From an uncultured Clostridia bacterium (GTDB lineage: Bacteria; Bacillota; Clostridia; Christensenellales; UBA1242), in assembly GCA_934747765.1 (NCBI GenBank), contig CAKVGZ010000001.1, positions 204,442 through 268,441 on the forward strand: a DNA stretch of 64,000 nt. Reading direction: 5' to 3'. A program made the translations under genes and the position numbers. Shown here piece after piece: positions 10,777-64,000 of this stretch (its first letter is position 1; each line of letters begins with the position of its first letter). The notes under the pieces were generated by a model. It did not search any database, was not told where the DNA came from, and was given only the letters and a program-made list of their open reading frames with translations.

Positions 10777-11964
10777 ATGTACACAGAAAATAGCATAGGA
10801 CCAGTTGCAAACATCAAAGTTGTTGGAATTGGTGGGGGCGGTAACAACGCTGTTAACAGAATGATTAATGCAAACATAACCAGCGCCCAATTTGTTGCTA
10901 TAAACACAGATAAACAAGCATTGCTTATGAGCAAGGCAGATTTGCGTCTTCAAATTGGCGAAAAGTTAACTCGTGGACTTGGAGCAGGTGCTGACCCTGA
11001 AGTTGGTCAAAAAGCTGCCGAAGAAAGCAAAGCAAGCATAACAGAAATGTTGAAAGATTCAGACCTTGTTTTCATCACCGCTGGAATGGGTGGAGGAACT
11101 GGAACTGGTGCTGCTCCTGTGGTTGCTCAAATTGCAAAAGACATGGGAATTTTGACAATTGCAGTTGTGACAAAACCTTTCAATTTCGAAGGCAGAAAAA
11201 GAATGGAAAATGCTGAAAAAGGTCTTGAAAACTTGAAAAAGTATGTTGACACTTTGGTTGTTATTCCAAACGACAAACTCTTGAAACTTGTTCCAAAGGG
11301 CACTCCAATTGTTGAAGCGTTCAGATATGCAGATGACGTTTTGAGACAAGGTATTCAAGGAATTTCAGATTTGATTGTAACTCCAAGTTTGATTAACCTC
11401 GACTTTGCTGACGTTCGTTCAATTATGAAAAACAAAGGTCTTGCACACATGGGAATTGGCCGTGGAACAGGCGAAAATAAGACAATTGAAGCAGTTCGCC
11501 AAGCAGTTTCAAGCCCACTTCTTGAAACCACAATTGAAGGTGCAACAGGTGTTTTAATCAATGTTAAAGGTGGAAACGATTTGCCACTTGACGAAGTTTA
11601 TGAAGCAGTTGACCTTGTTAAAGAAGTTGTTGATGATTCTGGCAATATCATTTTCGGTGCTGCAATTGATGAAGCTATGAATGATGAAGTTGAAATAACA
11701 ATCATTGCAACTGGATTCAAAGGAGCAACCCAAGAAGAACCTGAAGTTGAAAAAGCAAGAGAAGAAGTTAAGGCGTATGGCGGATTTGACCGTGAAAAAT
11801 ATGACCAATATATACAACAAAACAATCCAAATCCATTGAACATTGGAATAAGTGAAGAAGAAGGTGATGATGAAGTTGAGGAAAGTCCTGCTCAAACTTC
11901 AAGAATTTCTATAAGAGAAGCGGATATACCTCCATTCCTTAGAAAGATAAAAAAAGATAGATAG
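10777..11964 (+). CDS. ftsZ: Cell division GTPase FtsZ
   Basis: '[18 protein letters not shown]' and the tubulin signature '[20 protein letters not shown]'. The C-terminal peptide 'DIPPFLRK' is conserved. Confidence 0.98.
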
Positions 11965-11990: not shown

Positions 11991-12189
11991 GTGGCAAATA
12001 TTTTATGATTTTATCAAAGTTATGTGCTGACAGTGCTTGACAAAAGGCGTGTGAAAACCTCGTTTTACGAAGTTGTTTTGCACATCATCAAAAGCCTAGA
12101 AAACGACTTGAAAAAAACAGATTTATACTATTGGCATGAAAAACAAAGTTAAAGAAAAAACACACACTCATTTGGGTGTGTGTTTTATT

Positions 12190-22496: not shown

Positions 22497-22572
<76 letters not shown>

Positions 22573-61843: not shown

Positions 61844-63481
61844 ATGATGCAAAAAACAATTAATGGGTCTATTTTTCGAAAAATGATTATGGCAGGTGCA
61901 AGTCTGCTTGAACAAAACAAAAAGTTGGTTGACGCGCTTAATGTGTTCCCAGTTCCAGATGGTGACACAGGAACAAACATGTTCCTCACAATTAAGTCCG
62001 CTTCGGCTGAAGTTAACAATTGTATTAACAACAGCATGGATTCTCTTTGCGAAGCTTATTCAAAGGGAGCTCTCCGTGGGGCAAGAGGAAACAGTGGAGT
62101 TATCACTTCTCAGATTGTGAAAGGCTTAACAAGTGTTCTTGGGCAAGCTCCTGAAATCACAACAAAAGTTTTTGCAAAAGCAATTCAAGAAGGCGCAAAT
62201 GTTGCTTATAAGGCGGTCACAAAGCCAAAAGAAGGAACAATTTTGACTGTTATAAGAACCATGGCTGAATCGGCAATTGAAGTTGCTAAAAAACACGCAG
62301 ATTTTGAAGAGTTTTTCAAATTAGTTTTGGACCGTGGAGAAGAAATCCTTCAACAAACACCAGAAATGCTTCCAGTTTTGAAAAAAGCAGGGGTTGTTGA
62401 TGCCGGTGGAAGAGGTTTGATTGTTCTTTTCACTGGATATTACAAAGCAATTTGTGGCGATGAAACATTAACTTTCAATTTTGATGACCCAAAACCTGTT
62501 CAATCTGTTGACGATGTTATTGCTGATATCAACAATCTTGCAGACATTGAGTTTGGATATTGCACAGAATTTATGATAATTCACATGCTTAAAAAGACCA
62601 CTGAAGCAGACATTGACAGATTGCGTGAAAAACTGATGGAAATTGGAGATTCTGTTCTTTGCATTGGCGATTTGAACCTTGTTAAAGTTCACGTTCACAC
62701 AAATGAACCAAACAGAGCGCTTGGATTTGCTCTTGAACTTGGCGAAATTTGGAACATAAAAATTGAAAATATGCTTGAACAAAACCGTGAACTTAAAAAG
62801 AACATGAAGAAAGTTGAGGAACTTAAACCACTTGGAATGGTTGCTGTTGCACCTGGCGAAGGTCTTGCGAACTTGTTCACAGATTTGACTGTTGACCAAA
62901 TTATTGCAGGTGGTCAAACAATGAACCCAAGCGCTGCCGACATTGCCAATGCAGTTGCAAAAGTCCCTGCAGAAAATGTTTTTGTGTTCCCAAACAACAA
63001 AAATATCATTCTGGCAGCTGAGCAAGCAAAAGCACTTTCAGAGAAGGTTATTCATGTCATTCCAACAAGAAACGTTCCAGAAGGAATTGCAGCATCACTT
63101 GCATTTAATCCTGAAGCATCTGTTGAAGAAAACATCGAAAACATGACTGCATCAATTGAAAACGTTAAAGCAGGCTCTGTGACTTATGCTGTTCGTGCAA
63201 CTCATGTTGATGGATTTGACCTTTCAGTTGGAGAAATAATTGGTTTGGATGACAAAGCCATTTTGGCAAAAGGTGCTGAAGTTTCGGCAACAACTGAAGA
63301 TTTGATTGAAAAAATGGTCGACGAAAACAGCGTTAACATAACACTTTTCTTTGGCGAAGACATAACAGAAGAAGATGCTGAAAAACTTAGAGAAAGATTA
63401 AGCGCAAAGTATCCTGAATGTGAAGTAACTGCAATATTTGGCGGTCAACCTGTTTATTATTACATCATATCAGTAGAATAA
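61844..63481 (+). CDS. DAK2 domain fusion protein YloV
   Basis: 'LNVFPVPDGDTGTNM' and 'RGNSGVI' (Dak2 phosphatase domain), plus a DegV-like C-terminal half. Confidence 0.9.
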   Translation: MMQKTINGSIFRKMIMAGASLLEQNKKLVDALNVFPVPDGDTGTNMFLTIKSASAEVNNCINNSMDSLCEAYSKGALRGARGNSGVITSQIVKGLTSVLGQAPEITTKVFAKAIQEGANVAYKAVTKPKEGTILTVIRTMAESAIEVAKKHADFEEFFKLVLDRGEEILQQTPEMLPVLKKAGVVDAGGRGLIVLFTGYYKAICGDETLTFNFDDPKPVQSVDDVIADINNLADIEFGYCTEFMIIHMLKKTTEADIDRLREKLMEIGDSVLCIGDLNLVKVHVHTNEPNRALGFALELGEIWNIKIENMLEQNRELKKNMKKVEELKPLGMVAVAPGEGLANLFTDLTVDQIIAGGQTMNPSAADIANAVAKVPAENVFVFPNNKNIILAAEQAKALSEKVIHVIPTRNVPEGIAASLAFNPEASVEENIENMTASIENVKAGSVTYAVRATHVDGFDLSVGEIIGLDDKAILAKGAEVSATTEDLIEKMVDENSVNITLFFGEDITEEDAEKLRERLSAKYPECEVTAIFGGQPVYYYIISVE

Positions 63482-63566
63482 AAAAAACGACTAACTTAGT
63501 CACTAACTTTTGAAACTAGTGTAATAATTAAGAGAATTAGAAAATAAATCTACTTCTCTTTTTTCT

Positions 63567-63740
63567 TGGCTACTTTATGCCGTGAAAGGTATTTGACAAG
63601 AGAAGAAATGAAAACACAATACAAAAAGGCAGAGAAACGAAAAACAAAGTGTAAGCACAAATATCGTTTCTCTGGCTTAACCAGCAAAAGAAAAACTCAT
63701 TTCGGAGACTCTTGTCAAGTACCATGGAATAAATTAGCCA
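63567..63740. ncRNA. Candidate structured RNA (6S-like rod), or alternatively an inverted-repeat-bounded element; strand undetermined
   Basis: Three nested helices were read directly. P1 pairs 63567-72 with 63735-40 (6 bp). P2 pairs 63588-602 with 63709-23 (15 bp including one G-U). P3 pairs 63630-40 with 63664-74 (11 bp perfect). Large asymmetric internal loops separate them, and a terminator hairpin follows. Confidence 0.3.
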
Positions 63741-63754
63741 TTGTATAGAACATC

Positions 63755-63797
63755 AAAAAGCGAAAGTGTGTTACGTTTACCAACACTTTCGCTTTTT
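63755..63797. terminator. Bidirectional rho-independent terminator
   Basis: AAAAAGCGAAAGTGT-13 nt loop-ACACTTTCGCTTTTT. Confidence 0.75.
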
Positions 63798-63820
63798 GTC
63801 TGCTTTAATTTAGTTGTTTT

Positions 63821-63875
63821 CGTGTGCTTGTCTGGTGGAGCGAAGCGACACCACTTGTATCATGACAAGCACACG
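63821..63875. repeat. Long hairpin / inverted repeat (12-bp perfect stem, 31-nt structured loop)
   Basis: CGTGTGCTTGTC ... GACAAGCACACG. It is GC-richer than its surroundings and lies 27 nt downstream of the SDR gene stop. Confidence 0.7.
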
Positions 63876-63902
63876 TCTAACTGCCAAATTGTAAGGTAAC
63901 TA

Positions 63903-64000
63903 TTAACAATAACCTCCATCAATAGTAATTATTTCGCCATTGATATAACTTGATTTTTCGCTTGATAAGAAGAATATTGTCTCAGCAATTTGTTCAGGCT
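63903..64000 (-). CDS. Short-chain dehydrogenase/reductase (SDR, FabG-like) C-terminus, partial
   Basis: The reverse translation ...PEQIAETIFFLSSEKSSYINGEIITIDGGYC* is the canonical SDR C-terminal motif. Confidence 0.75.
   Translation of the reverse strand, partial: PEQIAETIFFLSSEKSSYINGEIITIDGGYC

Follow-up and report, generated by a model that had tools for sequence, protein, structure and literature searches.

A probable plasmid-type single-strand origin at one end of small gene cassettes set in terminator loops of gut Clostridia

The segment discussed here lies in an insertion near the right end of the window, by which we mean the whole 64,000-nt (64-kb) stretch of Clostridia DNA that was analyzed. 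Six assemblies share exactly the same YloV protein. Two of them (L001 and L005) match the window, whereas the other four (L002–L004 and L006) lack 2.29 kb after yloV. In these empty sites, yloV is followed by 26 nt and then by a convergent aminotransferase gene, and the site forms a bidirectional terminator (AAAAACGACTAACTTAGTCGTTTTTT). In the filled sites this terminator is split after TT. Compared with the empty sites, positions 63488–63497 of the + strand hold the left half of this host terminator between yloV and the aminotransferase gene (CGACTAAC) and, after it, the common TT of the cassette junction. The insert begins at 63496 and runs past the window end (11655–13945 in L001). It consists of two tandem cassettes, A and B, with one TT in common. 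The intuition of an earlier note on this DNA that the segment belongs to mobile DNA is thus borne out by the absence of the insert from four sister assemblies.

Cassette A measures 1.28 kb, from 63498 to beyond the window end, and holds a module and a short-chain dehydrogenase (SDR) gene, with neither a recombinase nor a Rep gene. It opens with the left terminal inverted repeat AGTC-ACTAAC-TTTTGAAACTAGTGT (63498–63522, + strand), and homology between loci begins exactly here in 61 of the 61 loci that reach this end. The 3′ end of the cargo gene occupies 63903–64000 on the − strand and the gene runs beyond the window; the complete open reading frame, encoding 242 aa, is found at 12060–12788 of L001 (Pfam adh_short_C2, 2.9e-59). 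The same cassette recurs in another MAG (L030) within another terminator, as a unit of 1,282 bp that is 99.6% identical. Cassette B has no module and carries an orphan gene for 291 aa (L001 13005–13880, − strand). Its family has no Pfam match and comprises 31 clusters (P0001–P0031) in unrelated contexts, where the gene is single-gene cargo behind rplT or leuS or within accessory clusters. We considered this neighbor as a transposase and rejected it: it matches nothing in Pfam, belongs to a small orphan family, and is itself cargo in differing contexts.

The module at the left end of cassette A is non-coding, about 390 nt long, and sharply bordered. Its order is host flank, TT, left inverted repeat (AGTC-N6-TTTTGAAACTAGTGT), a first hairpin (T1), the segment of interest (hereafter the rod), a second hairpin (T2), a third hairpin (H2), and YCTAAsTGCCA, after which the loci diverge into their cargo. 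Every genome copy of the rod occupies the same position in the module. T1 (63530–63565, + strand) is a terminator-like hairpin (AAGAGAATTAGA..TCTACTTCTCTT followed by a T-run) that occurs in every copy and has a covarying stem: at least four compensatory variants, among them AGAGTTGAGAT/ATCTTAACTCT, AAGATTAGAGC/GTTCTAATCTT, and AGAGTTAGGAA/TTCCTAATTCT, keep the shape. It probably replaces, for the upstream gene, the host terminator that has been split. T2 (63754–63798) is a 16-bp perfect stem between an A-run and a T-run, i.e., a bidirectional terminator, and is kept in all copies reaching that far. H2 and its conserved tail TCTAACTGCCA extend over 63821–63886 of the + strand, and inter-cassette homology stops at 63886. 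In the hairpin proper (63821–63875), an outer stem of 12 bp encloses an inner stem that covaries around the invariant GAGCGAAGCGA, and CTTGTAT is unpaired. We regard H2 as a putative plus-strand origin or nick site, or possibly a packaging signal, as its homologues are found after rep genes of the family PF23343.

The rod covers 63567–63740, and all the helices described for it before are present. An inverted-repeat check of the window gives outer arms at 63567–63584/63723–63740, a 15-bp helix with one T.G pair at 63588–63602/63709–63723, and an inner helix at 63626–63640/63664–63678. The MFE fold adds a 7-bp helix, GAAATGA/TCATTTC, within what had been read as large internal loops of 27 and 34 nt. 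The rod folds far beyond chance: as RNA, the + strand reaches −59.8 kcal/mol (z −8.9, equaled by 0 of 200 shuffles) and the − strand −56.2 (z −6.7), and as ssDNA the + strand reaches −33.3 kcal/mol (z −6.9). Among 58 unique copies, the consensus pairs of the + strand contain 121 G.T cells vs 8 A.C cells, and two pairs are G.T in most sequences; the arms are fixed by the search pattern, which places arm covariation outside the scope of this alignment. Neither helix of the rod has further copies within the 64-kb window beyond chance, and scanning the arms against viral contigs returned 0 matches. A 60-aa open reading frame starting with TTG, already judged an unlikely protein, is indeed noncoding. 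The distance between the arms ranges from 122 to 132 nt across 64 homologues with differences that are not multiples of 3, and we reject coding in the rod because of these frame-breaking indels. The small open reading frames of the rod, looked up as called genes, are not on record.

A blastn search of PLSDB showed that 63574–63599 (TTTATGCCGTGAAAGGTATTTGACAA), comprising an RSB box and TTGACA, is 96% identical to a site in about 16 small streptococcal and enterococcal plasmids. These are pMV158, pND103, and about 14 others, sized 2.9–7 kb, in which the site is unannotated; in pMV158 it lies directly after mobM. In the rod, this stretch (63574–63598, + strand) consists of the RSB box TTTATGCCGTGAAAGG (63574–63589) followed by TATTTGACA with the −35-like TTGACA (63593–63598). 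The box sits at the loop-distal stem base and is identical to that of pMV158 over TTTATGCCGTGAAAG. The published RSB is TTATGCCGAGAAAATTT, and the published CS-6 is TAGCGT (PMC4598088). Both belong to ssoA, an origin of about 160 nt that folds when single-stranded; RNA polymerase recognizes it and makes the primer, and it functions solely in one orientation (PMC5703833, PMC4595007, PMC8860593). Within it, the polymerase needs RSB in order to bind, and the primer is terminated by CS-6 (PMC8860593).

The likeness extends to the other arm. The 3′ arm of the rod (CTCTTGTCAAGTACCATGGAATAAA; 63709–63733, + strand) is complementary to the RSB/TTGACA arm and has a homologue in TTGTCAAATAGACCATGGAATAAA, found in pMV158 and related plasmids. 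It reads TTGTCAA..CCATGGAATAAA in the rod and TTGTCAA.TA..CCATGGAATAAA in the plasmids, and a full ssoA hairpin with both arms is common to the plasmid sites. Global alignment of the rod with three plasmid ssoAs covers both arms and scores z 8.4–11.5 against shuffles, with the reverse complement of the rod at background score. An nhmmer profile of 10 plasmid ssoAs finds a single significant site in the 64-kb window, at 63573–63599 of the + strand (E 1.8e-5); in its local mode nhmmer aligns only the 5′ arm of the rod, and both arms are covered by the global alignment. Folded as ssDNA, the ssoA of pMV158 adopts the same architecture as the rod (z −6.75).

At the apex, a CS-6-like hexamer, TATCGT, lies at the 3′ edge of the apical loop (63662–63667, + strand) and aligns with the TAGCGT of pMV158 as a 5/6 match (TATCGTTTC in the rod vs TAGCGTTTC in pMV158). 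The apical mini-hairpin is GGCGAAGCC in the rod and GCCGAAAGGC in pMV158. The hexamer varies within the rod family (TATTGT, TTTAGT, and others), and the exact TAGCGT is also missing in some plasmid ssoAs with identical arms. Between the arms, the sequence of the rod shows no resemblance to the plasmid ssoAs. These share their arms, yet have two unrelated interiors among them, so the divergent interior of the rod fits the family. T2, H2, and the left end of the cassette have no match in the ssoA plasmids.

Fold statistics, arm homology, and the profile match together point to the rod as an ssoA-type single-strand (lagging- or minus-strand) origin, to which we give a probability of roughly 0.8. 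It would be a DNA signal working only when the + strand of the window is single-stranded, that strand being the active one. The + orientation of the rod equals the mob/rep coding sense of the plasmids and the rep sense of H2. While ssoA itself is a known class, its mobile context here is unusual and possibly undescribed.

To place the rod in this context, we searched one genome per species with the exact pattern of both arms. This yielded 64 rod loci in about 55 species-level MAGs, all of them gut Clostridia (including Christensenella, Christensenellales, Catabacter, Ca. Onthoplasma, and Ca. Caccovivens), with one or two copies per genome. Each cassette interrupts a different intrinsic terminator of the host, in its loop (L016–L079 and L083–L105; e.g., L016, L018, L020, L024, L037, L053, L063, and L077). 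To the left of the cassette lie an A-run and one half of the stem, to its right the complementary half and a T-run; TT is the sole sequence common to both junctions. The right ends read ..CACTAGTTTCAAAAG-N-CC/TT (the slash marks the junction), the inverse of the left repeat, 0.65–3.1 kb away. The cassettes thus delimited range from 0.7 to 3.2 kb and have 25-bp inverted repeats. As cargo they carry a single gene or a pair, oriented either way, and the range of genes is very wide: radical SAM, HD, SDR, exonuclease III, MBL-fold, and HNH proteins, a restriction-modification pair, APH with GNAT, ABC-F, an ABC transporter, and small membrane proteins. Insertion in terminator loops is a plain observation, as is recent mobility. 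In the literature searched, we found no earlier description of this cassette family.

Seeding a metagenome scan with nothing but the left end added 21 relevant loci (leaving out L085 and L087 as unrelated chance matches), about three quarters of which carry a rod. Some of these cassettes have nothing besides the left repeat, T1, and their cargo. Another contains half a rod (L088 11442–11518), which ends in the apical loop and runs directly into the cargo. Since about a quarter of the cassettes with the same left end have no rod and one has half, the rod is dispensable for insertion. The half rod is a sign that the origin is open to decay or deletion.

Crude motif scans of 455 open reading frames at about 100 loci gave nothing relevant for serine, tyrosine, IS110, or HUH recombinases, and no rep, mob, or recombinase genes were found in or near the cassettes. 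In one locus (L047 18–344), a fragment of an IS200-like (HUH, Y1) transposase lies directly left of the cassette, an adjacency that may be coincidental. The 2-bp junction and a putative 52-bp palindromic circle junction would fit a serine recombinase, an IS110-type, or an IS30-type enzyme, of which none was found. Three specific models were rejected. A bridge or guide RNA as in IS110-like elements does not agree with a rod that is nearly invariant, while the TT-adjacent cassette ends and the target stems change from copy to copy. An integron attC site is at odds with the junction, CC/TT and not G/TT, and neither an array platform nor an integrase was seen. The "inverted-repeat replacing" insertion of IS1272 (PMC5678879) differs in that the host stems are retained on both sides here.

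Other readings of the rod have to be weighed against these results. The earlier note had proposed 6S RNA, and in this reading the rod is the gene for a structured regulatory RNA, 6S-like or of another kind, transcribed across its whole length and sequestering RNA polymerase or another protein. The stem-bubble-stem architecture with TTGACA speaks for it, as do the terminator-like T1 and T2 bracketing the rod, the G.U bias in favor of the + strand fold, and an extended −10-like TGTAATAAT conserved upstream of the rod in the left end. However, neither 6S nor any other relevant Rfam family matches, whether at the gathering threshold in the window or at E ≤ 10 in 63400–64000. The arms are homologous to a plasmid DNA replication signal, and the gap between T1 and the rod is too small for a promoter. 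Moreover, the rod lies in strain-variable DNA, absent from four sisters with identical YloV and present at another locus in L030, unlike a housekeeping 6S gene. Such an RNA gene is highly improbable. What survives of the idea is the architecture: a promoter mimic bound by RNA polymerase, as in ssoA, with the difference that it consists of ssDNA and not of RNA (PMC5703833, PMC8860593, PMC4595007). The sole Rfam match at the gathering threshold in the window is an ordinary tRNA gene (22500–22572, − strand).

It is also unlikely, if less so than the other rivals, that an ordinary double-strand promoter within the rod (TTGACA-N16/18-CACAAT/yAATAT) drives an sRNA of about 170 nt comprising the inner hairpin, an A-rich tail, and T2, with the outer complementarity being incidental or the segment serving as both origin and sRNA gene. 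A promoter-like site with a score of 10/12 does lie on the + strand at 63593–63620, its −10-like yAATAT is kept across the rod family, and T2 follows at a suitable distance downstream. Yet the −35 element and the spacing are inherited from ssoA, TTGACA being present in the stem of pMV158 too, and the conserved G.T pairs of the outer helices argue that both arms fold in one strand.

The remaining alternatives take the mobile context as their starting point. In one, the rod itself is a MITE, as suggested before, or a relic, decaying and no longer functional, of an origin that the cassette took up from a plasmid. Its position within mobile DNA, the cassettes without a rod or with a truncated half, and the low number of one or two copies per genome are compatible with this. 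The rod is never alone, however: it is always fixed within the larger conserved module, 50–61 nt from the left repeat, and has no target-site duplications of its own. A relic is further countered by 86–100% identity of the rod over the 64 loci from about 55 species, loops included, while cargo and T1 stem diverge, although recent horizontal spread could mimic such conservation. We consider both variants very unlikely. The other alternative, a phase-variable inverton in which a promoter segment is flipped between inverted repeats, was prompted by the 15-bp inverted repeat with TTGACA that bounds about 106 nt. It is almost certainly wrong. The interior has the same orientation relative to the flanks in 64 genome and about 16 metagenome copies (0 of about 80 assembled copies inverted), all of which align end to end relative to the left end, T1, and T2; there is no invertase gene nearby, and flipping would leave both the nested inner helices and the ssoA homology unexplained. 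Annotating the rod as an RNA gene, 6S RNA, or a phase switch is unwarranted.

H2 and its tail match a human-gut contig deposited as unverified phage (86%, E 2e-11). In this contig, the homologue lies 144 nt after a 354-aa open reading frame that belongs to Pfam PF23343 REP_ORF2-G2P (E 1.2e-13) and contains the motifs HFHGIF, which is HUH-like, and YIMKY. The Rep family counts 3,958 matches, Christensenellales proteins among them. Five rep loci with Reps 59–100% identical were examined, and in all five an H2 homologue, 86–90% identical to H2, is located 144–148 nt past the rep stop codon on the rep strand (L114 5001–5065; L116 11186–11244; also L118, L119, and L122). There it is preceded by another long hairpin with the apex ..TAGCGG.., which is not an RSB-type ssoA, and followed after 10–25 nt by variable cargo. 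The cassette end motif is absent from the Rep-bearing loci. On sequence grounds, H2 is a conserved cis-site of G2P-type Rep elements, which the module of the window carries without rep. A role of H2 as pMV158-type oriT was considered and dropped, as there is no similarity.

The cargo of the Rep elements includes a Gabija-like pair of OLD nuclease and UvrD helicase, PAPS-reductase/DUF4007, and a YpsA-like gene. The cargo spots after H2 were located at 11424–15125 of L116, 11280–11786 of L118, 5450–8054 of L114, and from 4412 to the locus end of L119. PAPS-reductase together with DUF4007 is phosphorothioation-like, and a conserved block with PcfJ and PcfK genes follows the cargo spot in the Rep-bearing elements.

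Because H2 recurs 144–148 nt after G2P rep genes, the module looks like an origin pair without rep. It is best read as a putative minus-strand origin plus a Rep-cognate site, in a phagemid-like or satellite arrangement. A possible course of events would be as follows. The + strand of the cassette becomes single-stranded, either by Rep-driven rolling-circle copying from H2 or by transfer or packaging through a helper, and the rod folds. Host RNA polymerase would then recognize the duplex of RSB box and TTGACA at the stem base as a promoter mimic, with the −10-like yAATAT exposed in the internal loop 16–18 nt downstream of this stem. A short primer RNA would be begun on the 3′ arm and stop after about 15–20 nt at the CS-6-like TATCGT by the apical loop, and DNA polymerase would extend it, so that the ssDNA is made dsDNA. 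In this scheme, a helper element would copy and perhaps transfer the cassette as ssDNA, and the rod would restore the double strand afterward.

Extending this to the whole family, the rod may be the minus-strand origin of mobile gene cassettes that form a class not described before and occur in Christensenellales-like gut Clostridia. Such cassettes would be recombinase- and Rep-less units of 0.7–3.2 kb with 25-bp inverted repeats and a TT junction in terminator loops, equipped with their own T1 and an ssoA/H2 pair. They would spread as ssDNA via a filamentous-phage-like or ICE-like helper and serve as an integron-like shuttle for accessory and defense genes. We put this broader picture forward tentatively and with more doubt than confidence. 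The part that may be new is the cassette family around the rod, and this context is more valuable than the identity of the rod: arms near-identical to those of streptococcal plasmid ssoAs are fixed at one end of dozens of tiny cassettes, beside a hairpin that is elsewhere linked to rolling-circle Rep genes of the filamentous-phage (G2P) type. If the cassettes move via ssDNA and home to terminator loops, they would give a little-studied gut lineage a simple and abundant means of exchanging genes, and would be a natural example of insertion that spares the neighboring transcription units. The cargo observed includes restriction-modification, aminoglycoside phosphotransferase and acetyltransferase, ABC-F, and metallo-beta-lactamase-fold genes.

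Several known systems share features with these cassettes. Integron gene cassettes, MICs, and CIMEs are small units without a recombinase that have diverse single-gene cargo and conserved ends, and the rod cassettes likewise form tandem arrays with a common junction. In contrast to integron cassettes, they have 25-bp inverted repeats and a TT junction and insert one by one into terminator loops, not into attI, and neither an attC-type site nor an integrase was identified for them. The intergenic region of the Ff filamentous phages is a cluster of hairpins comprising a minus-strand origin primed by RNA polymerase and the site of the gene-II-type Rep. In phagemids, miniphages, and satellite phages, DNA with these signals alone is replicated and packaged by a helper. 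The tie of H2 to PF23343 G2P-type Rep genes recalls this arrangement. The differences are that the proposed minus-strand origin here is of the plasmid ssoA type and that the putative helper Rep elements carry another hairpin.

In 6S RNA and in Frpo of the F plasmid, too, a folded single strand mimics an open promoter, on which RNA polymerase makes a short RNA (PMC4595007 for F and the Gram-positive sso). 6S RNA differs in being a chromosomal, housekeeping RNA. For integrated elements, the ssoA of IMESag-rpsI from S. agalactiae is a precedent in a chromosomal mobilizable element (PMC5090054). Like the sso1 of ICEBs1, it is the single-strand origin of an integrated element and is thought to turn ssDNA from transfer or rolling-circle replication into dsDNA (PMC5090054, PMC4595007). 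Those elements, however, have their own relaxase and integrase and measure 9–20 kb, whereas here we deal with cargo-only cassettes of 0.7–3.2 kb.

The closest relatives remain the ssoAs (palA) of rolling-circle plasmids of the pMV158/pLS1, pT181, and pE194 types. In both, an imperfect hairpin of about 150–175 nt has RSB at the stem base, TTGACA in the stem, a small apical hairpin, and a TAGCGT-like hexamer followed by CGTTTC, and the homology holds in one orientation. On the other hand, the rod has an unrelated interior and a CS-6 matching at five of six positions. The plasmids live in Bacilli and the rod in uncultured gut Clostridia, where a chromosomal cassette with neither rep nor mob carries it in place of a plasmid. 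In several of the streptococcal plasmids, ssoA adjoins small genes annotated as Fst-type type I toxins (L107 512–610; after ssoA in L108–L112).
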